Part shown: in pieces, positions 3,910 through 58,934 of the stretch
How positions within the stretch are numbered: position 1 is the stretch's first letter
Layout of the letters: each line of letters starts with the position of its first letter
NCBI GenBank assembly: GCA_951406725.2
Contig: OX597823.1
Location: 101,370,001 to 101,434,000 of the forward strand
Direction: 5' to 3'
DNA length: 64,000 bases
Source of the DNA: Octopus vulgaris
Taxonomy: Eukaryota
Position numbers and translations under genes: made by a program
The notes under the pieces: generated by a model
Told to the model about the DNA's origin: nothing
Seen by the model: the letters and a program-made list of their open reading frames with translations, nothing else
Database searches by the model: none

Positions 3910-4468
3910 TACACATACATATATATATACATACATATATATATATATATATATCAACAATTGAGGGTAAAGTTAATTAGTTATTAATCAATTTCACCAA
4001 GTATTCAGTATGTAAAGGGACCATTATTTTTGAGTAAACATTGTCTGAGAGAAATTTTCTTTAAGTAGTGGAAATGGCTAAAAAACTTTTTGGGCTGCTA
4101 TTTCTAGAAAGTTCAGTATGTGGCAAAGTAATTTATTTTACTAAGCCCTAATTATATAATATTTTATATATACATACATATATATACACACATACACATA
4201 CATATACATATGCGTACACTCACATATACATATATACATATATACACACACACACGCACACACACATATATATATATTTACATACATACACACGCACACA
4301 CACATAATACATGCGTATATTCCTACTATACCCATACATTTCTATACATATATACGATACACATATACAAGCGTACACATACAATATGTGAAAGGTCTTA
4401 GGAGAAAAGGTAATCGGGGGTGCTAGGGGAACGGTGGGATTGGGGGTGGTGGTTGTGGGGGGGTGTCA

Positions 4469-5458
4469 TCAATCTGGTTGCCGGGTAGGTCTATAGTTCT
4501 TGTAGTTTGCATAATTCTTATGCTTGCAATTTGGGGAGTGTTCTGAGATCTTGTTAAGGAGAGGGCCTTTGGCGAACAAGATCTCTAGGCTCTCCGAAAT
4601 GCAAAGGTCACAGCAGGTATGGCCTCCTGTGTACGAACGCGCCTTCTGTAGTAGTTTCCACTTGGTCTTGAAGGGGATGGAGTTCCTTTTAAGGTACCAG
4701 ATGTGGGCGGCAAGGGTAGTTTGGTTGGATTTATCTGGTCGCCGGAACGAGTGTGTGTGGGCGTACCAACGGGTCTTAAAGCTGTTTGACGTCATTCCGA
4801 TGTAGGATTTTCTTTTATCATCAGGGCCTGATCTTACCTCGCATGTATATACGAGGTCCCTCTGTAGGCAGTTGTTGTTGAGGGGGCAAGTGGTTTTATC
4901 AGGGCAGTTGCAATTGCTATCGGATGTTGGATGGGCCTCGGAAAAAGTAGATATATTAAGTTTTTTCACATTGTTGTTGGCTAGGTTCCTGGCTAGATTG
5001 GGCGTGGTAGAGTAGGAGAGTCTAATAGTGTTCTTATTTAGGATAGTGTAGTACTTATGTTGGGTGGGGAAGTGTTTCTGTAGGAGAGTGAAGAATATTT
5101 TAGCTACAGGTGTAGCGACCTCACGGTTGAAGGGGGGGGTTGTACCATTAATGTGTCTTCGTCTATTTTTCCTGGGTTGGCGTGGGGCTATACTAGTATA
5201 GGTAATCTTATCTTTAAAGCCACTGCGGGCCAGGGCCTCGTTGTAATAGGGGGCTGCGGCCTTAAAGATATCTTCCGTGGCGGACAGGCTAGAAATTCTA
5301 ATTGAGACACTTTTTACTAGGTTATCTAATATATTTTTGGGGTGGTTGGAATTAATGTCTATATATCTAAGGGATTCATTTGGTTTGTGGTACGGGTAAT
5401 AAAGTGAGGTTTTTAAGTCGAGGGTAACATCTAGGAAGTTAGCTTTGGTTAAGTTGGA
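4469..5458 (-). pseudogene. PLE ORF C-terminal part: end of RT (FLDVTL), Cys-rich linker and GIY-YIG endonuclease
   Basis: Motifs FLDVTLDL, YHKP, SNHP, CNC..CPLNNNC, LVYTC..SYIGMT..FKTRW..H, CDLC..E. The first ~25 aa of the track ORF come from the inverted pLTR. Confidence 0.9.
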
Positions 5459-5550
5459 TTTTTGCGCTATGCCTACCCCCAAAAAGTCCCCCACCACCAC
5501 CCCTTTAAACCTGCCTAAATGTATAAATGCCAATACAATTCTTGTTAACT

Positions 5551-5601
5551 AGCTTCCTGATGATTTCTCTTGAATGAAACAGTTCTAGTCCTGTAGAAGC
5601 T
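5551..5601 (+). ncRNA. Type I hammerhead ribozyme in inverted pLTR
   Basis: Stem I AGCTTC/GAAGCT, core CTGATGA and GAAA, stem III CAG/CTG, GUA cleavage triplet ending at 5595. Confidence 0.85.
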
Positions 5602-5683
5602 CCTTCTATATAATAAATATTTTTACTCTGCTATGTATTGAGTACCTTATTTACTGTGGTTAACCCCGAATCAACCCGGGACC

Positions 5684-5725
<42 letters not shown>

Positions 5726-8231: not shown

Positions 8232-11200
8232 GTTAAGTTAATTTTTTGGCTCAAAAAGCAAAAAGCAAGGCCATGTAGGGGGACATGGAGTTATGTACAG
8301 GGAGGGTGTTCATGCAAAGAGTTCAGGCCATTTCTGGTCAAGAGAGACTTTGAACCGAGCGGTCGTCGGCATCTTCACTATCTCGTCCGGCAGCTTATTC
8401 CACGGATCCGCAACCCGGACGGAGAAAGCCCCTCTCCTTCGATTGAGATGAAATCGTCTCAGATAGAGCTTTTCGGAGTGACCCCCGCAGCCGACGCTCT
8501 GGAGCAGGAGTGAAGAACAGCTCTTTCGAGAGTTTACACTTTCCGCTTATGATGTTGTGAACAAGAATGAGATCACCACGGCATCGTCGTTTTTCTAGAG
8601 AATAAAGGTCGAGCGTCTTCAGCCTTTCTTCATAAGACAAATGCTTGAGACCAAGAATCATGCGGGTAGCCAGCTTCTGGATTCTTTCGAGATGAGGGTA
8701 TGTCTTTGAGGAGATAAGGAGAAGAGGATTGAATTCCGTACTCCAATATGGGTCTCACCAGCGTGACATAGAGCTGTAGGAATATGGCTGCTGTGAGCAT
8801 TCCGAATGACCGTCGAATCAAAAATAGAATCTCCGCGTACTTTGTTGGCAGCATGGACGCACTAGGCCGAAGGCGAAAAGGAAGAATCCACCAAGATACC
8901 CAGGTCCTTTAACTGGTCGGTTCTCTCCAGCAGCAGACGACCCGGCTCGAAATCAAGTTGAGTTGCAGGAGAGGAGCCAACAAGCAGATGACAGCACTTT
9001 GACACGTTCAGACACAGGTCCCATTCGTTAGTCCATCTCCAAACTTGGTGGAGGCATCGACGAAGATCATCTATATCACCGCGAGGAGCGACCAGTTTGA
9101 CATCATCGGCAAATAGAAGGGTGTGTTGCGTGAGGTCGTCGGGCAAGTCATTGATGAAGACTAAAAACAATAACGGCCCAAGCACTGAACCTTGAGGCAC
9201 GCCACTGCTCGCACTGGAGACGTCGGACAGCGAACCATTAACTTGGACTTGGAAGTAGCGATCTGAGAGGAAGGCACCAATCCATCGTACAATATCCGGA
9301 TGGAAACTATATGCTTGAAGCTTGACAAGTAATAGGCGGTGGTTAACCGAGTCAAAAGCTTTGGCAAAGTCCAATAAAACGATGTCAACAGCATCACCAT
9401 CATCCAGGATACGTGTCATCAATTCTTCCATTACCAGTAAGTTGGTCAAGCATGATCTCTTCGGCACGAAGCCGTGTTGGGAATCAGAGATACAGGCTGT
9501 GTTTTGGAGGTGGAGCAACATACTTTTCTTGAGGATGGTTTCGAACATCTTGCTGATTATTGAAGTAAGGGAAACCGGTCGGTAGTTAAGCGGGTCTTCG
9601 CGGCTCCCTTTCTTGAAAATTGGGCAGATTATCGCTGTTCTCCAGTCCGCAGGTATAACACCCGTCGCCAATGACATATTGAATAGAAGTGTTAAAGGTT
9701 CGCAGATGACCGGAGCCAACGCTTTGATAACCTGTGTGTGTATGCCGTCAAGGCCGTGACCCTTGTTGATATCGAGGCCTTGAATAACGCGTTCGACTTC
9801 GTCCCGAGTGATGACCAATCTAGGCATTGGAGGTACCGATCTATCAAATGGGGTGGGGTGGGGGTCACGACCATCATCTTGTTTGAAAATTGTTGAAAAA
9901 GCCTCGGCAAATAACTGACTCTGCTGATAAAGGTCCTCAATCGATACGCCTGTTGAGTCTACCAACGTTGCAATTTGGTTGTTCAAGCGGGAATTCCGTT
10001 GGACATGGGCAAAGAAGGTTTTTGGATTGCGACTGGCGTTTGCCGCGATTCTGTATTCATATCTGAAGCGTTCTTCCTTTTCAATTTTCACGGCTCGGTC
10101 TCGTTGAGTTTTGTACACCTCAAAAGCTGCAGTCGAATCTAGATTTTTGAATTCAGCCCAAGCAATATCTCTGAGTCGAAGTTCTCGTTTAACCTTCTTC
10201 GTCACCCAGGGAAGCCCAACGGGAACTGCTTGGTCAGTCAACCAGATTACATATGATTTGAGGGACGACCATAGTTCGTCAACTGAGGACATCGTCATCA
10301 GGGATCGCCAGTCCAGAAGTGCAGAAGCCTCGGTTAGAATTTCAAGATTGATTTGCAGAGAAGACTCTACGAGGCAGCGAAGTAGTCATGGGCGTAGAAA
10401 AAGTTGTGTGCATGTCGAACTTCAGGACCGCGTGATCACTCTTGGCAAGAGGGGCGCACACAGATAAGCCTGACACTGATCTTGGATAGCGGGAGAATAC
10501 CAGATTCAGCATAGATGGTTGTTGCCTAGACCGATGCCTTGTCGGATATTTAACATGTTGCGATAGAAAACAATCTTCAGCCACGTCAAGAAGGGCTTGG
10601 TCGAACCGGGAAGATGATGTACAAATTGATGCGGGCCAGTCGATCGTGGGAGCATTGAAGTCTCCTAATATCAAACAGTCGTGAGAAGCTGAAACGAATC
10701 TTATCGTTTCGAGTAAATGAGCATCATCCTGGAGGTCGGCAAGAGGCGGCCTGTAGACAGCTAACACGGGCAGGCAAAACCCGGATAGGCTCAGCTTGCA
10801 ATAGACGGCATCGAATTTTGTTGTAGGTTGAGCATTAGTGGGTAGAATACCGCTGAACGGTTTGAGATCAGATTTAACATACACAGCAACACTTCCACCT
10901 TGCCTTTTTCTCTGTCACACCTGAAGAGGGCGTAGCCCTGTAGGTGGATTTCCGAGTCCTTTACTGCTGGAGTCAGCCAAGTCTCGGTGATAGCTATCAC
11001 ATCTGACGAATCACGCATGGCCAGTGTAAATAATTCGCTGAACTTTGGAAATAAGGAGCACAAGTTGGTATAGACGATGCTGAGCTGTGAAGTTTGACGG
11101 ACGGGAATTAGGGAACAAACAGAATAAGGGGTATTAGAGATAGCATCGTTGTCGGGGGTATCTACTTTACTTCGATTCGCCCTCGATTCACTTTCCCTGT

Positions 11201-13156: not shown

Positions 13157-16100
13157 CTTTTTTTTTCTTCTTTCAAATTTGCTTCCATTTCTTGCCGAGT
13201 GTCTTCCCGACTCCTAGGGCAAAGAAACTCATAGTATACATTGGTAGGCCATTAAACCAAACTCAATAGTTCGTTCATTTTTATTTTTTAATTTTTTTAA
13301 AAGTTAAATTAAAATACATGAGCAGCAACAGTTCTCACATCGACAATGCTCTTCTCAATACGTGTGATGTACCAGTTAAGACAATCTTTTGCACTTCTTG
13401 CAGGGATGGTAAGCCAGGGATCATTCTCATATAATTTTCGGTTCCCTTCTTGATCATTCCTAGTGCTCCTACGATCACTGGTATTGTAACCGCCTTGAGA
13501 TGCCACATTTTCTCAATTTCAATGAGTAGGTCTTTATATTTTCTGAGCTTGTCAAACTCTTTCGCTGAGATATTATGATCACAGGGGATGCTCATGTCGA
13601 TCAATAAGCAAACTTTATTGTTTTGGTCTTTCACAACAATATCTGGTTTATTGGCCTTGATGGTTCGGTCTGTATGTACTGGAAAGTCCCACAGAATGGT
13701 TACATTTTCTCCTTCAGTTACAGCCTCAGGGTGGTGATTATACCACTTGTCGGCAGTTTTGATATTGTAATGCCGACTTATTAGCCAGTGTAGATATTGA
13801 CCAACTCTGTCATGTCTTAATTTATACTCCACTGGTACTAAGACTTTACATCCAGAGATTAGGTGGTCCACTGTTTCAATCATGTCGTTGCAGAGTCGGC
13901 ATTTTGGGTCTGCTCCATTTTTCATCACATTGGCCTGGTAGTTCCGGGTTAATAGGCTTTGATCTTGAGCAGCCAGGATGAAATCTTCGCTCTCTGCTTT
14001 TAGCCCTGAGCTCCGTAGCCACTGATGGGTTTGCTTCTAGTCAACATCAGCTTGTTTGCTGCGGGTCACATATTTGCCGTGCAGAGGTTTCTCCTCCCAC
14101 CTATCAGCCAATTGCTCGTGCGCTTTTTTCGTTGCCATCATTTTCACCTTCTTTGCAACAATAGTTGCCGTACTTCCCTCGGGTTGTTCAGTTTGGGTAT
14201 CCTGCACGAGATCAATAGCAAATTTTTTGCTTTCCTTTATAATAGAATGAAGCTTCTTTCGTCTCTCGTGATTTTCCACGAGCTTTAGCATCCAGTCATT
14301 CGATATTTCGAAATATTTGGCCAGTCCAATTGTGGTTGTTTTGTAAGCTAGTTCAAATTGGATCAGGCCTCGACCTCCTTGGGCTCTGGGAAGGTAAAGG
14401 CGATCTACGTCTGCCTTTGGGTGGTGCATCCTATTACAACTCAGCAGCTTGCGTATTTTCCTATCTATATTCTTTACTTCACTCATATTCCAGTTCAACA
14501 CATTGTAGCTATAAGTAACAACTGGAACTGCTAAGGAATTTATAGCTAACACCTTGTTACGTGCATTTAGTTCAGATTTCAGGACTGCACAAACTCTCCT
14601 ATAACATTCCTTCCTGATCTTCTCTTTCATGCTTGCATGCTGAATACCAGAGCCTTCATTTATCCCTAAATATTTGTATGTTTGTTCTTGCTCAAGCTCT
14701 CTTATGACTGTGTCAACATCTAACAAGACTGAATTTGTGGTCTTCACTTTCCCTTTCTGGAAAGTGGCCTTGGCACACTTCTCAAGTCCAAACTCCATCC
14801 CGATGTCATCGCTGAATGCTTTCACGGTGCGCAATAGGCCTTCAAGTTCATTATTGTCTTTACCATAAAGTTTTAAGTCATCCATATAAAATAGATGGCT
14901 TATTTTTTTATTGGCAATTTTATACCCATACCCTGTTCTGTTTAATTCACTTGTAAGGGGTATTAGGGCTATGCAGAATATTAAAGGTGAAAGTGAGTCA
15001 CCTTGAAAAATTCCACAGTTGATGTTTATATTTTCTGAGGCAAGTACTCCATTAGAGTGGTATAATTGGAGATTCGTATTCCACAACATATTGTGCTTCA
15101 GGAAGTTTGAAATCACAGGGGAAATTTTGAAGATGTCCAGCGATCTCAAGATCCATGGATGCGGTATACTGTCGAAGGCCTTTTTATAGTCAATCCATGC
15201 TGTGCTGAGATTTCTGCGCTTGTTGTGACAGTTCTCAAGGATCATACGATTGATTAGCAGTTGATCTTTGCATTCGTAAGAGCCTCGGCGGCACCCTTTT
15301 TGTTCAATGGGGAAAATATCGTTCTTCTCCATGAATGCATATGTTTTCTCCGCCAGGATAGATGTTAGGATTTTATACGTGGTGGATAGACAGGTTATAG
15401 GCCGATAGTTTTTTGGAAGGTTGGTTTCGTTATTCTTTGGGAGTAGGTAAGTAATGCCACTTGCTAACCATTTAGGTGTTTTCTTTGGGTCTCTCATAAT
15501 TCCATTGAGCAGCTGAACTAGCTTACCGTGTGCGCATGGGAGCGATGCGAGCCTGAAATTCGGCACCCTATCTTTACCGGGGGATTTCCAATTATGGGCC
15601 TTCGTGAGTGCCTTTCTTAGGTCTGCTATTGTGATGTCTTCCCATGCTTGTTGTTGTAAATTTTGGTAGGATCCTTCAGTTTGTATAATCCAGTCTGCAT
15701 TTATGTTGTACGTCTTCTTGTCACTCCAAATCCTTTTCCAAAAGTTTTGAACTTCTTCCATGGGAGGGGGGGTCTTTAACGCTTACTTTCTCCTTCCTTA
15801 TTTCTCTGTAGAATTTTTGGGCATTGGATGTGAACAGCTTATTTTGCTTGTAAAACTTGTTTCTCTTCTCAAATCTTCGTATTCTTTGGGCTTTTGCTTG
15901 GACTTTTTGTTTCAGCGTTTCTTTTATTGATATCAGTTCTTCTCTTGGTGAGGATCCAAATTTTCTCTTCATCTTTCTTCCTGTTCTGGATCTTACATCA
16001 TTTCCCACATATTAGTTCATTTAATATTGCTATTTCCCCTCTCATAAATTCAATCTCTTTTTCAATTTTACTTCTCCAGGTTTGATTTCTTCCCAGGTTT

Positions 16101-21780: not shown

Positions 21781-22106
21781 ACCGACATGGCTTCGGTGCT
21801 TAAAAAAGTTGTTGATTTTAGATACAAATTCAAAAGTATCCCGAATAAAAGAACTTGATCTTTTTGCAACAGGGAATGGAAAGCCACCCAGCTATTCTGA
21901 AATCTTGGCTGTACAACATTCATATCTGCTGTAAGTTGGATGCATTGGAGGAAATCTTTCGAAGTTCTTGTGTACTTTAAGGGGACCCTAAAATACAGGT
22001 GTTCTTTCTGACCACAAACATTCTGGGTTCGGCCTTATTAATGAAATTGTTTTCCTCAATTTCCAGAATCATCTTGTCAAGTTCTTCTCTGTAATCGGAG
22101 TTTGGA

Positions 22107-22460
22107 TTGACAGGTAATACAACCAACAATTTTTTCACACACGGAATTTCTACATACAGTCCACACCGCACATTGTTCATTCATCACACCAGGAGCAATC
22201 ATTGTGTTTTGTTGACTAATGTTTTCGGAGATGTTTATATTTATGACAGTTTGAACTTACCAATACCGCTAGGACTATCAGCACAAATAACAATGTTGTA
22301 CTCACCAGAAGAAAGCATAATTCCTAAAGTTCAATATGTTCATATTATTAATCCCCAAGTTGGCTCCTATGATTGTGGCCTCTTTGCCTTGGCCTATGCA
22401 TTTGAACTGGTCATTGGAAACGATCCAGAGTTTTTATTTGATCAATCAAAAAAAGAAGGT
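22107..22460 (+). pseudogene. Ulp1/C48-like cysteine protease fragment, probably transposon-derived
   Basis: NHCVLL..IYDSL..PQVGSYDCGLFALAYA gives the H-D-Q-C catalytic order. Confidence 0.6.
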
Positions 22461-22573
22461 AAGAGATGCGTCCATGACGTGAGGTAGCGGGAACGTAATA
22501 GTAACGCTTTCACGTGATTAGTTGAAGGGAAAGAGATGTTTGTGTACGTATGTTTGAATGCATGTGTGTGTGC

Positions 22574-22653
<80 letters not shown>

Positions 22654-23040
22654 CTGTATGTATATGTACATGTACGCGTATATGTTTGTGTAAGTATGGG
22701 TATTTGCATGTATATGTATTTATTATTTGTGTATGCATGTATGTCTATGTGTATATATATATATATATGGGTATATATATGTATATGTATATATGTGTAT
22801 ATGTATATGTATGTGTGTATATGTATGGACTTGTAGGTTTTTTTATATATATGCATATATATGTGTGCGTGTATATGCGTAGATATGCGTATGTGTATTA
22901 GTATGTGCATGTGCTTATATATATGTACGTATGTGTATAGGTGTATATGGATGTATGTGTATGTAGGTATGTATATGATGGGCGTAAGTATATATGTGTA
23001 TGTATATGTAGGTATATACGTATGTGTATATGTATATATA

Positions 23041-23075
<35 letters not shown>

Positions 23076-23079
<4 letters not shown>

Positions 23080-25173
23080 CATAAGGGACTAAAGCCATCT
23101 GAATATGGCTAGGGACAGGGCAGGGTGGTGGGGGTGTTACTGTTGCATTTAGCCCCAGGCGAACATCGACGTCACCAGAAAGGCTCGACACCGTCACGGT
23201 GCCCTTAACCTGCAAAGGAGGTAATTCCCCGATGAAGCGGAAACCACACACGGACCATGGTTTCAAGGTGTATTGCCTATCGTCGGCGTGTGGTAGGCTT
23301 CCGCTTCCTCGACGAATTCTCACTCTGCAGGATATTCATATATAGATTTTCAAGCAAAATACATTTGCTGATTTCGAAAATCTGTTCGAAAGCAATAATA
23401 ATTCTCTAAAAGAGATATAGACAGTAACTGCTCGATAACATAAGGGACTAAAGCCATCTGAATATGGCTAGGGACAGGGCAGGGTGGTGGGGGTGTTACT
23501 GTTGCATTTAGCCCCAGGCGAACATCGACGTCACCAGAAAGGCTCGACACCGTCACGGTGCCCTTAACCTGCAAAGGGAGGTAATTCCCCGATGAAGCGG
23601 AAACCACCACACGGACCATGGTTTCAAGGTGTATTGCCTATCGTCGGCGTGTGGTAGGCTTCCGCTTCCTCGACGAATTCTCACTCTGCAGGATATTCAT
23701 ATATAGATTTTCAAGCAAAATACATTTGCTGATTTCGAACAGATTTTCGAAATCAGCAAATGTATTTTGCTTGAAAATCTATATATGAATATCCTGCAGA
23801 GTGAGAATTCGTCGAGGAAGCGGAAGCCTACCACACGCCGACGATAGGCAATACACCTTGAAACCATGGTCCGTGTGTGGTTTCCGCTTCATCGGGGAAT
23901 TACCTCCCTTTGCAGGTTAAGGGCACCGTGACGGTGTCGAGCCTTTCTGGTGACGTCGATGTTCGCCTGGGGCTAAATGCAACAGTAACACCCCCACCAC
24001 CCTGCCCTGTCCCTAGCCATATTCAGATGGCTTTAGTCCCTTATGTTATCGAGCAGTTACTGTCTATATCTCTTTTAGAGAATTATTATTGCTTTCGAAC
24101 AGATTTTCGAAATCAGCAAATGTATTTTGCTTGAAAATCTATATATGAATATCCTGCAGAGTGAGAATTCGTCGAGGAAGCGGAAGCCTACCACACGCCG
24201 ACGATAGGCAATACACCTTGAAACCATGGTCCGTGTGTGGTTTCCGCTTCATCGGGGAATTACCTCCCTTTGCAGGTTAAGGGCACCGTGACGGTGTCGA
24301 GCCTTTCTGGTGACGTCGATGTTCGCCTGGGGCTAAATGCAACAGTAACACCCCCACCACCCTGCCCTGTCCCTAGCCATATTCAGATGGCTTTAGTCCC
24401 TTATGTTATCGAGCAGTTACTGTCTATATCTCTTTTAGAGAATTATTATTGCTTTCGAACAGATTTTCGAAATCAGCAAATGTATTTTGCTTGAAAATCT
24501 ATATATGAATATCCTGCAGAGTGAGAATTCGTCGAGGAAGCGGAAGCCTACCACACGCCGACGATAGGCAATACACCTTGAAACCATGGTCCGTGTGTGG
24601 TTTCCGCTTCATCGGGGAATTACCTCCCTTTGCAGGTTAAGGGCACCGTGACGGTGTCGAGCCTTTCTGGTGACGTCGATGTTCGCCTGGGGCTAAATGC
24701 AACAGTAACACCCCCACCACCCTGCCCTGTCCCTAGCCATATTCAGATGGCTTTAGTCCCTTATGTTATCGAGCAGTTACTGTCTATATCTCTTTTAGAG
24801 AATTATTATTGCTTTCGAACAGATTTTCGAAATCAGCAAATGTATTTTGCTTGAAAATCTATATATGAATATCCTGCAGAGTGAGAATTCGTCGAGGAAG
24901 CGGAAGCCTACCACACGCCGACGATAGGCAATACACCTTGAAACCATGGTCCGTGTGTGGTTTCCGCTTCATCGGGGAATTACCTCCCTTTGCAGGTTAA
25001 GGGCACCGTGACGGTGTCGAGCCTTTCTGGTGACGTCGATGTTCGCCTGGGGCTAAATGCAACAGTAACACCCCCACCACCCTGCCCTGTCCCTAGCCAT
25101 ATTCAGATGGCTTTAGTCCCTTATGTTATCGAGCAGTTACTGTCTATATCTCTTTTAGAGAATTATTATTGCT
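23076..25173. repeat. 360-bp tandem array with inversion: ~1.8 minus copies (23076-23739) and 4 plus copies (23733-25172)
   Basis: Exact 360-bp period (TTTCGAAC at 23733, 24093, 24453, 24813). Palindrome centre CAGATT at 23740-23745. (TA)n on both flanks. Confidence 0.97.
24083..24392 (+). ncRNA. Putative structured RNA within the 360-bp monomer (representative copy)
   Basis: Several helices covary with the homolog at 32259-32572. G-U pairs favour the + strand. Confidence 0.65.
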
Positions 25174-25564
25174 ATATATATATATATATATATATATGGA
25201 CTTGTAGATTTCTGTATGTGTATATATATATGAATGTGTATGTGTGTAGATATGTATCTGTATGTACGTGTACGTATGTGTATGTACTTGCATGTATGTA
25301 TATATGCGTGTAGGTATATATATGTAGGTATGCTTTTATGTACATGTGTATGCATGCATGTGTGCATATATGTGTTTATAAGCGTATGGATGCGTATATA
25401 TGCGTATGTATGGTTATATGCACATATGTCTGTATATGGGCATATGCGTTTATATATGTGGGCAGATGTTTATGTGTGTTTATGTGAAAGTGGGTACATT
25501 TATGTATGTATGAATATGTGTACTTGTGTGTGTGTATGTATGTGTATACATGTATACATATATA

Positions 25565-26317: not shown

Positions 26318-26747
<430 letters not shown>

Positions 26748-32258: not shown

Positions 32259-32572
32259 AGAGATTTATTATTGCTTTCAGACAGTTTTTCGAAATCAGTG
32301 ACAGTGGTTACTGGGAAAAACATTAAATAGATATTCGCAAACAGGTCTCTCCTCATCGAAAACCGGTGATTACCGTACGTTGACAAGAGGCAAAAAACCT
32401 CAAAAATGCATTCCGTCCGTATCACTTAGGTTTACGAGAGGGTATGACCTCCCTTTGCAAATATCATAAGGGCACAAAGTGTGCCTAAATCCAGCTGGAG
32501 ACGATAATCTCCTGGGGCTAAAAGCTACAGTAACACCCACCCTTAGTGGTTAGCCATATTGAGATGGCTAGT
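32259..32572 (+). ncRNA. Diverged single homolog of the 360-bp structured monomer
   Basis: Shares TTATTATTGCTTTC, TTTTCGAAATCAG, ACCTCCCTTTGCA, TAAGGGCAC, CCTGGGGCTAAA.GC.ACAGTAACACCC and TAGCCATATT.AGATGGCT, in the same order. Confidence 0.75.
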
Positions 32573-32892
32573 ATACTTTACGATAAATCAATTATCTTGA
32601 CAGAAAGATTTAAAAAGTTATATTTTTGTTTTATTATTATTTCTATTATTTTTGTTGGTTAGTCAAAGAACAAGTGGACACACCCTTAACTTTTGCAAGC
32701 CCTCCCAAACTGCTGAGGTCGAAATTATAATTGGAATAATATGGGAGGTTGAGATCAAGGGTCATGTGTTGCTAATAATTGTCTCGTCCATCTCTGTTAG
32801 GAGCCCATATGGAAATCAATAGAATCAGGTTTAATCAAAAGCAATATCTGAAGACGATCCACTACTTCGAAACACTTTATACCAGTAGTGCA

Positions 32893-54937: not shown

Positions 54938-57900
54938 TCACAATGGACGGACGCTAGTCATATCGGCTCCACGTAAGTTGGCCACTTTTACATGTTTAAA
55001 ACTCCTTGTCAAATATTTTGTTTTAATCGTTGTGCAAGTTCATTCACTAAAAAACCTCAGAATTATTCACGTAGAATTCCGCCCCTGTATGGGCGAAATT
55101 ACCAGAAACTTTCAAAACTTTAGTTGGTTCTTTTTAGCCATTTTTCATTTTGAAAATGGCAACTAGAAACCACGTGGCTAGCCCGCCAGTCATGCAGAAC
55201 GGTAGCGAAACACTATTGCTACCACTAGCTGCTAAACCTCGCAGCTTGAACACCGCTGTCACCAACACCACCACCAACAACAACAACAGCAAAACTAACG
55301 TCGCGTCCGAAGACATTAACTTAGATTTCCCCCCACTCCCTACACCACTTGACGATGATAAAAGGACGGAGAAAGGGATTTCAAAAACGAATACAGACGA
55401 AAACATGAATGCCAGCACCACCACCATCACCACCACCAACAACAACAACGAAATGGGCACAAAGCCGCCTACCAAAGACAACACCGCCAACACCAACACC
55501 ACTACCACGACTTCAACTGCTATAACTAACCCTTCTGCTGCTAAAACGAATTTTGCGGATGTGACAAAACAAAAACGAACAATTGTAAAATTCACCACAC
55601 AGGAAATAAACCGCACAAAAGCACTCTTCACCAAAGAAGGAGACAAATTGCACCTTCACATTCCACAACACATCGTGGAAAACACACACAAAAAAAGCAA
55701 TAATTTATAAAGTAATAAACAAGAAAACAAGACGAACAGAAAATGCACCGCAGGAAAAAATTGAAAAATGTCTTCGTCCTGCATGGGACTCCAAGGAATA
55801 TATCAGTTGGGGAAATAAATTTGGTACAGTCCAAGTACGTTTCCTCAACGAAAATTTAGCAAAACATTTTTCCACATTGGAGCTGCATTCGGACGACTTG
55901 GTAATGATACCAGTCTATTTAAACAAGAGAGTCACGAAAGTCCAAATAAAAAATGTACCACTTGAAGTCGAAACACAATGGTTAGTCTCTGCCATCTGCT
56001 TTGAAATGACAGAGACAATGTCAGAGACAAACATCCTTGAAATCGCTGTTCTAGGAGAGAAAGACTATGTGGGAAAATCAATCGAATTCCTTCTTCATTT
56101 GGATGAAGCAGCAAGAGAGAAGATACCCACCACTATAGAACTGCCAGGAGGCTACAAACTTTATGTAGTGGTAGAGGGCAGGCGACCACGCTGCTATTTG
56201 TGTGGAAGCGAAACACACTTGAAAAAGACGTGCCCAACCACTGCACACCAAGAGCAACAACAACCACTACCACAACCAAAGCACTCCGAAAAAAAAGCTC
56301 TACTACCCACACCACCATCAACACAGAAGACGACAAGAGAAGCACACCAAGCTAATCCGTCATCAACCAAAAACCACTCAACACCTGGAAAAATACTAAC
56401 AACAGCAAGAACCAAAGGAACAGAAAAACAAATAAAACACACAAAAACTGACCCCCCCATCCCTTATACCGCACTCAACACACACAAACACTCAACAACC
56501 AACAACAACGAAAACAACAACACAACCACTTACACAGACATACATAGAAGCCTACAACATACCCCTACCCCCTACTGATTCCTCAGAAATTTCGTCGGAA
56601 GACGAAACCAGTGAGGAATGGAAAATAGCTACAAAAAGAAGGAAAATAAAGAGCAAAAACACAACCAAACCAAATGCAAACACGAACAAAGCAGAGGGAA
56701 ATACATCTCCCGAAGACATTTCAAAACCCAACACAAACAACAGCCACACTGAAAAGCTACGAAGCGGTGACAGGAGCGAAAATCAACCGGGAAAAGTCAG
56801 TGGGCTTGCGACTAGGCACCTGGAGAAGCAAGCCCATGCCGTCCACCAGCGCCTCCGTCGTGGGACGCTGGACCGACGGCCCGGTTGAGTTGCTTGGGGT
56901 CTGGTTTGGTCCGGACCTCCAAGTGGAGAAGAACTGGAACAAGAGAACGAGTAGGGTGGTCACTCTCGCCCGGCAATGGGCCGAGAGGAAACTGTCCCTA
57001 AAAGGTCGGGCGGAGGTGGTGAACACGTACATCGCGTCCGTCATCTACTACCGCCTGACCGTCGTACCTTGTCCCGACCCTGGTCGACAAGGCACAAACA
57101 TGCGCCGTGCCAGGCCGGACCATCCATGACAACCTCCACCTCATGCGCTACATCATAGACAGGGTAGTTAACGAACCTGGCATGGGTGGGGCGCTGATCA
57201 ATTTGGATCAATCGAAAGCTTTCGATAGGGTAGACCATCGATACTTGGAGGCGGTCCTCAGAGCGGCTGGCTTCGGTCCCGTCTTCCGCGGCTGGATAGC
57301 CGCTTTGTACAGAGGCATCCGTTCGGTAATTCGCGTGAATGGACATCTATCGAGACCCTTCGACATCGCACGTTCGGTCCGTCAGGGATGCCCCCTCTCG
57401 TCGCTTCTATACGTATTGACTCTCAAGCCATTATTGCGGAAGCTGGCAACTTTGAGGGGCATCCCGCGAGAACTGGGATGCGGGACGAGCGTGTCTGCAT
57501 ACGCGGACGACGTCACCGTCATAGTGTCTAGCCACGAGCACATCGAGCAGTTCCATCACCAAACTACAACGCATTCTCTTTCGCTTCTTGTGGAAAGGAT
57601 GCGTCCCGATGGTCAGGCGATCCATTTGCTGTCAACACCCGTTAAAAGGAGGGCTGGGCATGCCGTGGTTGATGATGCGCAGACACGCGCTGAGACTGCG
57701 ACATCTCTGGCTCTATGTAGACGACGGTGAACAGGTGTGGTCGCCGTTTGTGAGGCACGCTTTCCCGCAGCTCGTCTCCATGACCGAACTGCAGTCGTGG
57801 ATCAAAAAGAGGCCGAGGAAGGGCGAATGGCACCGCGAGTGTCGCGTTGCTCTCAAGCAACTCTGCCGTCCTGGGTCGACCTTGAGTGACTTCAACACAA

Positions 57901-58934
57901 CCAAAGCATTCTATAGGAGATTAGTGGAGGGGAGGTACGACGACGAGCTCGGGGCGAACCTGGACGTCGACGAGGAGTACCTAACCCGCCTGTTCAGGAC
58001 GACTTTCGGGCCAGGGCCCATGGACAACTTCCAGAGATCCCTGGCCTGGCAGTGTTACCGAGAAGCGCTACCCGTTCGGGATAAGCTCTACAGACACGGC
58101 TCGAGAAACACGGGGCCGACCTGCCCGAGATGCGGTCAGAGCGACGAAAACGTTCTGCACGCACTCGTGCAGTGTCCAACAATTTCCGACCTGTGGGCTT
58201 GTGTCGAACAACTGCTGTCACGTGTGGGGCGAGTTGGTTTATCAGCTGAGTCTATCGTCAATATTGTCACGCCTCCTTCCTTCAAACGGGAAGGAAGAGC
58301 TATTTTCATCATCCTTGTGGCTATGGCGAAAGAATGTATCTGGTGGACGCGTCTGAAAGGATTGGAGACAAACACTTTCCTCTCTGGTCAATCTCTCATC
58401 AACTTCTTCAAGTACCACTTGAAAAGGAAAGTGAAAGTAGAGAAGCAAGTTTTGTCTAGCGAATGTTTAAAAAAAAGATGGGTGAATGTAGCAAGGATGG
58501 CACGTATGAATGACGAAGCCACCTTGAGCATAATCCTATGAACCCAGAAATTGAAAACAGAGGGTTACCCACTTGCAAACAAATGTGGTAACATATAACA
58601 ATATTGACCAAGGTCACCGTGGTCTTTTTCGTAGGCTTTTCTTCCCACGGATAAACCTTACTTGCTTTCCCCTTTACACCATATATCATAACACGATCCC
58701 TATTGATCGTTCTTTTTTTTTCCTCTTCCCCTTTTTTCTTCTTTTTTCATTTCTCTTTTCTTTTGTTCCTTTTCCTTTTCTTTTTTTTCTTTTTATTCTT
58801 TTTATTTTTTATTTTATTTATTTATTATTTATTTTTTTTCTTTTGTTTTTTGGTTTTTTTCATCCCCCAAAAGAAAAGCTCTACCTTGTAACTTGTCCCA
58901 TCTGTGTGCAGCCCTGTGTGGCCAATAAAGAAAC
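54938..58934 (+). mobile_element. Tx1-like (L1 group) LINE, internally deleted and rearranged, within (TATC)n
   Basis: ORF1 with CYLCGSETHLKKTC knuckle. RT motifs LDQSKAFDRVDH, QGCPLS and YADD. C-terminal CPRC..H..C. AATAAA precedes the (TATC)n tail. Confidence 0.88.

Follow-up and report, generated by a model that had tools for sequence, protein, structure and literature searches.

Introduction

Metazoan non-LTR retrozymes are tandem non-coding units that each carry one type I hammerhead ribozyme, the 350-390-bp repeats of mussels being an example (Cervera and de la Pena 2020, PMC7229834). In the available portions of that paper they have a short palindromic helix III, a GC content below 50% and no LTR, with long target duplications where these are visible. 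Retrozymes and a Penelope-like element (PLE) as their proposed driver are both already published, as the accessible parts of PMC7229834 and of a study of vertebrate retrozymes (bioRxiv 10.64898/2026.07.22.740005) make clear. The latter treats its retrozymes as non-autonomous PLE derivatives, a link drawn there from co-occurrence and pLTR homology. PLE insertions in turn frequently contain a 5' copy in inverted orientation, and one of their ends bears a tail of 30-40 bp, according to the sections available of PMC8557442 and PMC3846280. Two-site initiation by a PLE has likewise been published: in the excerpts available of PMC11167929, the protein cuts and extends both strands, starting at two internal RNA sites, and in vitro the tail is the stretch between these two starts.

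The window analysed here (a stretch of 64,000 nucleotides of Octopus vulgaris DNA) contains an element that is a PLE-mobilised retrozyme with a variant ribozyme core. It shares all of the retrozyme traits listed above, and a U-U at the base of helix II is found both in its unit and in axolotl Rtz353 (accessible text of PMC7229834). It differs from the retrozymes of those pages in that the core is non-canonical (CCGACGA, CCGAUGA, UUGAUGA, UUGAUAA, UUGACGA or UUGACAA) and in that it is known from DNA alone. The same pages yielded no description of tailed, two-armed inverted insertions such as those found here. With PLEs, as they appear in the portions available of PMC8557442, PMC3846280 and, for PAc, PMC11167929, the element has in common the head-to-head inverted arm, the tail at one end only, the preference for (TA)n and ends that lie downstream of the hammerhead cut. 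In contrast to PLEs, its unit lacks a coding frame, its tail measures 43 nt, its putative starts lie 178 and 221 nt past the predicted cut and its arms extend over many units. The partnership with PLEs is shared with vertebrate retrozymes, whereas the link is seen here in the anatomy of the insertions and a homologous pLTR was not found among the PLE loci and flanks examined. In the open-access literature we found no report of retrozyme insertions that bear this footprint of tail and inversion, or of the present cephalopod family.

Results

Anatomy of the locus

The insertion consists of two arms joined head-to-head (Table 1; window position 24093 is unit position 1). The + arm is made of four 360-nt units, as a sequence-only reading of this DNA had reported, with 0 mismatches among them, and the inverted arm covers 1.84 units with two 1-nt indels relative to the + units. 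Common to both arms are the 7 nt TTTCGAA (23733-23739), which lie within a hairpin, and (TA)n flanks the insertion on each side; the microhomology, the start of the inverted copies at the hairpin and both flanks, all described by that reading, were seen again. It had also placed both ends of the + block at one monomer position. Those coordinates stand, but the left one (23733) is the internal inversion junction and not an end of the element, whose true left end is 23076, unit position 317, the second of two fixed ends. Read against the + arm, the inverted arm ends in the second unit, not in the fourth. Relative to shuffles, folding of the unit is stronger for the + strand (z -5.2), the - strand reaching z -3.4. 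The identity of the + units supports the proposal that the insertion is recent.

Table 1. Features of the two-armed insertion and its flanks (window positions).
Feature	Position	Strand	Remarks
Whole two-armed insertion	23076..25172	.	Arms head-to-head; each outer end is a 3' end in the unit's + sense
Tailed arm, four identical 360-nt units	23733..25172	+	Outer end is unit position 360 (TTATTGC|)
Inverted tail-less arm, 664 nt	23076..23739	-	Outer end is unit position 317, inner end is position 14
Small hairpin, unit positions 1-20	23733..23752	+	First 7 nt are the arm-joining microhomology
Long stem, unit positions 57-184	23789..23916	+	Hammerhead at tip; many cDNA arms end at its 3' base
Hammerhead, unit 1	23832..23877	+	Core CCGACGA, U-U at helix II base, palindromic helix III; predicted cut after 23871
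Hammerhead, unit 2	24192..24237	+	Predicted cut after 24231
Hammerhead, unit 3	24552..24597	+	Predicted cut after 24591
Hammerhead, unit 4	24912..24957	+	Predicted cut after 24951
Hammerhead, inverted arm, inner copy	23607..23653	-	1-nt insertion in 3' strand of helix I
Hammerhead, inverted arm, outer copy	23247..23292	-	
Segment at outer end of + arm	25130..25172	+	
Left (TA)n target flank	23044..23075	.	
Right (TA)n target flank	25173..25197	.	

The array lies inside an older PLE copy (72-75% to its family's pLTR), in a 3' region rich in microsatellites. The pLTR end of this host copy, at 26440-26634 (+), carries a canonical hammerhead (core 26508, cut after 26541) and is followed by (TA)n. 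A truncated PLE occupies 4290-5700 (-), with an RT thumb and C-terminal GIY-YIG frame at 4469-5548 and an inverted pLTR piece upstream; it gave no notable Pfam match, and its family is very abundant (33,745 candidates). Remnants of LINE-type reverse transcriptases (RVT_1, zf-RVT) lie at 8862-10385, 14037-15782 and 55610-58541. A 130-aa frame at 22095-22487 (+), which lacks a Pfam match, has a motif that makes it look like part of a DNA transposon's cysteine protease.

A dispersed family of retrozymes

A 28-nt internal motif of the unit had 2,084 exact matches in the 2.8-Gb genome (control 0), and the density of the first 100 of these extrapolates to roughly 900-1,000 loci. In a DNA search, the best 40 of 794 candidate places were 99-100% identical and spread across many chromosomes. 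The units are tandem, non-coding, dispersed and about 360 nt long, against a range of 150-450 nt for retrozymes, and a hammerhead fold was present in 6/6 units of the window; the non-LTR retrozyme identity suggested from the sequence alone is borne out by these results.

We mapped 138 loci, comprising the 40 best (window locus included), 39 found by the internal motif, 54 found by the tailed end and 5 long ones. The 39 and the 54 were taken in genome order and the 5 were chosen for length, with 1/60 dropped; the rows left out were L213 (arm below 24 nt, undetected) and, at L200 and L201, an older second insertion each. The set selected by tailed end is biased toward the 360 end, whilst the set selected by internal motif is free of that bias.

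The window also holds, at 32259-32582 (+), one copy of an older sister retrozyme family, family B, with the U3-A8 core UUGACAA. Family B has at least 2,508 candidates and both fixed ends as in the window family (family A). Unit positions 231-300 (window 24323-24392), a small hairpin included, are best conserved between the two families and may serve in RT binding or as a promoter. Twister and HDV-like folds at unit positions 200-317 were tried and dropped, their pairing being inconsistent by eye. An snRNA-type promoter was likewise set aside: unit positions 18-24 (AAATCAG) resemble sequence around -60 in some U2 genes, but local alignments at 12 U2 loci did not score significantly above shuffles.

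A hammerhead with a non-canonical core

Alignment of families A and B revealed a type I hammerhead at unit positions 100-145, with the core CCGACGA (U4C), a U-U at the base of helix II, GAAA and an 8-nt palindromic helix III. The cut is predicted at GUC, unit position 139. A relaxed descriptor, written after the motif had been seen, matched the six units and nothing else in the window, and matched 0/5000 shuffles. Across 27 aligned sequences, hand-picked from 54 that represent 115 distinct copies, pairing held in 94.3% of cells, compared with 23-53% in slid controls. Both sides had changed in 8/15 pairs, although few of these compensatory changes are independent since the 27 sequences belong to two or three related subfamilies. 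The 3-8 pair is retained as C-G, U-G or U-A, and the centre of the helix III palindrome reads AU, UA or GC.

The window subfamily departs from the canonical core C3 U4 G5 A6 N7 G8 A9 by U4C and by U10.1-U11.1. Cores in the internal-motif set were CCGAUGA (10 loci), CCGACGA (9), UUGAUGA (4), UUGAUAA (3) and UUGACGA (2), whilst that of family B was mostly UUGACAA. None of the copies read has the canonical core CUGANGA, so that standard descriptors and Rfam overlook this hammerhead: when 23000-24500 was compared with Rfam at E values of 10 or less, chance microRNA-type matches from the inverted repeat were returned, and no ribozyme. U4C and a U-U at 10.1-11.1 both occur naturally and are tolerated, U4C lowering activity in vitro yet leaving enough in a viroid, according to the portions available of PMC3088659. 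In comparable amphibian motifs, cleavage depends on dimers and ligation is by RtcB, as reported in the accessible text of PMC7229834. In the modelled monomer, the active fold would lie 8.8 kcal/mol above the predicted minimum, which is a blocked fold.

Two fixed outer ends

Two-armed insertions made up 106/138 of the mapped loci, all head-to-head, and this common polarity supports the inversion as real rather than a product of assembly. In 99 of the 106, the outer ends were of two kinds, 360 (354-4) for one arm and 317 (303-320) for its partner, leaving the 43 nt between 317 and 360 as a tail at one end only. The same pair of ends was present in 27/28 two-armed loci of the internal-motif set, and 7/12 one-armed loci of that set showed the 317 end alone. 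Genome-wide, exact ends adjoining (TA)n numbered 758 at 360 and 522 at 317, the former bearing out TTATTGC| as a fixed end, where the sequence-only reading had placed it. In sets not selected on flanks, (TA)n adjoined 50/58 tailed ends and 50/57 tail-less ends. Target duplications of 12-13 bp were present in three loci outside microsatellites, picked by eye.

The two ends at 317 and 360 match the tail and inversion signature of PLEs, as far as the published portions described above go, and thus point to two-site initiation of reverse transcription. The inverted arm, the tail at one end and the preference for (TA)n likewise support the Penelope-type mobilisation proposed from the sequence. A young PLE with 781-aa frames ends 57-86 or 105-111 nt downstream of its own hammerhead cut, and for the PLE that ends at window 26634 the distance past its own cut is 93 nt. 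Since the ends of these two autonomous PLE families lie tens of nt past the cut, a fixed insertion end is the start of copying and not a processing site. GC|UUUC had been put forward as the cleavage/ligation site; that assignment is not supported, the predicted hammerhead cut being 221 nt upstream.

We consider it quite probable that the array is a recent insertion of a 360-nt hammerhead non-LTR retrozyme, copied by a PLE into (TA)n from two fixed RT starts, one per nicked strand. Arrays would be transcribed in the + sense, and cleavage by the hammerhead at GUC 139 would be slow, probably in a dimer formed through the palindromic helix III. The unit-length RNA would then be ligated into a circle, by RtcB if the amphibian analogy holds. 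The PLE endonuclease would nick both DNA strands about 12-13 bp apart, two cDNAs would start at 360 and 317 and follow the circular template for 0.3 to 15 turns, and their 3' ends would be joined (here via 7 nt of the 1-20 hairpin) to give a head-to-head inversion with the 43-nt tail at one end. In L1 twin priming, two target-primed cDNAs also produce a 5' inversion, with the second primer annealing at variable internal sites, whereas both starts are fixed in the window family.

Circular or linear template

Of the loci with three or more full units, 18/23 carried one haplotype at the common sites in both arms, and 270/350 within-locus unit pairs shared a haplotype compared with a fraction of 0.099 between loci. 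The single insertion at L198 (436-8763) has about 23 units in arms of 5304 and 3025 nt (14.7 and 8.4 units), and 16/20 of its full units are identical, yet they carry 10 changes from the window unit. A uniform haplotype per locus together with long arms speaks for repeated copying of one unit, as the sequence-only reading had proposed, most simply a circle, and we favour a circular RNA as the template. One circle is insufficient for L037 (1993-5910), with 7 haplotypes in 12 units, and for L220, which is likewise mixed; both need template switching or a linear multimer. Runs of different haplotypes follow one another along one arm at these two loci, suggesting template switching between RNAs.

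Two-site PLE initiation could instead act on linear multimers, with the ribozyme largely inactive, the circle absent and uniform units arising from uniform source arrays. We regard this as possible but rather unlikely. Such multimers, or tandem homogenisation, could account for the homogeneity of units, and the mixed loci, the U4C core and the predicted blocking fold would all suit a linear template. In the available parts of the literature, PLE insertion in vitro works without hammerhead cleavage (PMC11167929) and 8/9 Xenopus retrozyme dimers were uncleaved (bioRxiv 10.64898/2026.07.22.740005). However, 5'-truncated linear copying can merely shorten arrays, whilst arms of 8-15 units have turned up repeatedly, with haplotypes specific to their loci. 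The many distinct uniform haplotypes also imply repeated single-unit bottlenecks, and the helices and the helix III palindrome have been kept between subfamilies. A circular template copied from two starts remains our preferred reading.

Inner junctions and the fold-back alternative

In 160 arms, inner ends occurred throughout the unit. They exceeded expectation only where the long stem has its base (positions 180-200; 26 observed, 10.6 expected) and, weakly, near the predicted cut (138-146; 8 against 3.6, P 0.03, for a range picked after a first look). There was no excess at 353-14 (5 observed, 6.9 expected), so a + arm of exactly 4.0 units is no rule of the family; pile-ups at 310-325 and 353-14 in the first 58 loci were gone in the 160-arm set. 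The lengths of the two arms correlate (Spearman 0.55).

According to the sequence-only reading, a single cDNA begun at 360 snaps back on the hairpin and copies itself into the inverted arm, in which case it would have to stop at 317. The window junction is a near-perfect palindrome at a natural hairpin, 6/58 junctions overall are near-perfect palindromes, and 19/99 loci are of mirror length (inverted arm equal to the tailed arm minus 43 +/- 15 nt). Self-priming has also been proposed for palindromic PLE junctions in the portion available of PMC3846280. Mirror lengths, palindromic junctions and correlated arms are, however, also predicted if both cDNAs copy a single template at the same time and halt at the same block, and many of the mirror cases fall at 180-200, where both arms tend to end. 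An inverted arm made by fold-back cannot exceed the copied arm minus the tail, yet 39/99 do so (at L037, 3918 against 369 nt). Moreover, both inner ends lie at the hairpin in 3/106 two-armed loci, the window locus among them, and the hairpin is weaker in family B. The 317 end standing alone in most one-armed loci of the internal-motif set and the stop of the window's own inverted arm in the second unit rather than the fourth are further points against it. Fold-back is thus refuted as the general rule, and we judge it an improbable origin, although it may be a minority route that includes the window locus. At this one locus, snap-back and the annealing of two cDNA ends via the 7 nt would be equally compatible with the sequence.

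An ordinary satellite or an assembly artefact is very improbable: identical units and microsatellite flanks, where assemblies can err, would suit it, but short arrays on many chromosomes with the same two ends, the same arm polarity and target duplications already refute it at the family level.

Search for the driver element

The best candidate driver is the young PLE with 781-aa frames, which has no sequence in common with the unit. Found at L264, L269 and other loci, it has many identical intact frames, (TA)n targets and a 38-nt tail, and its hammerhead core UUGAUAA (U3-A8) is that of the older retrozyme subfamilies. By its CX4CxxC linker motif alone, it appears to be Neptune-type. The PLE family of window 4469-5548 likewise has no sequence in common with the unit. 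An autonomous PLE sharing unit or pLTR sequence was present in none of 8 extended loci of the window PLE family, 30 GIY-YIG loci (1.5-kb flanks; best 150 of 6,136 candidates scored) and 32 one-armed flanks.

Naiad was rejected as the driver: the unit bears a hammerhead and is not of the Naiad-associated kind, and a 28-nt Naiad_Ovul motif had one match, in a decayed fragment. In the available Naiad consensus file of PMC8557442, a search with 5 short terms, whose matches line breaks could hide, did not find the unit motif.

Core variant and arm length

The two sets taken in genome order held 93 loci, and the core was readable in 51 of them. With lengths measured to about 3.5 kb, the longest arm exceeded 720 nt in 14/32 C3C4 (U4C-core) loci and in 1/19 U3U4 (U4-core) loci (Fisher P 0.004). 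The U3U4 loci are older (internal divergence 1.17% against 0.23% for C3C4). Arm length did not drop with divergence inside either core class, and at an internal divergence of 1.5% or less (45 loci measurable) arms above 720 nt were found in 13/28 U4C loci and 1/13 U4 loci. As this is a single contrast between subfamilies in which other changes differ too and lengths are bounded, the link between core and arm is a lead only. We tentatively suggest, as an idea that may well prove wrong, a retrozyme lineage whose ribozyme has been tuned down: U4C would slow the re-cleavage of circles, so that the paired PLE RTs would roll further and make longer arrays.

Discussion

The return of animal retrozymes to DNA has been proposed, not demonstrated, whilst the formation of inversions and tails by PLEs has been partly worked out. 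The octopus family brings about 1,000 young, coding-free insertions with the two-start footprint of a PLE, and their arms are long enough to read the history of the template. Its predictions are exact: cleavage at 139, reverse transcription beginning at 317 and at 360, and a circular 360-nt template. Hammerhead surveys that look for the canonical core miss abundant, active retrozymes of this kind. If the lead on core and arm length were true, the octopus genome would keep a natural dose-response record of ribozyme strength against rolling-circle reverse transcription.
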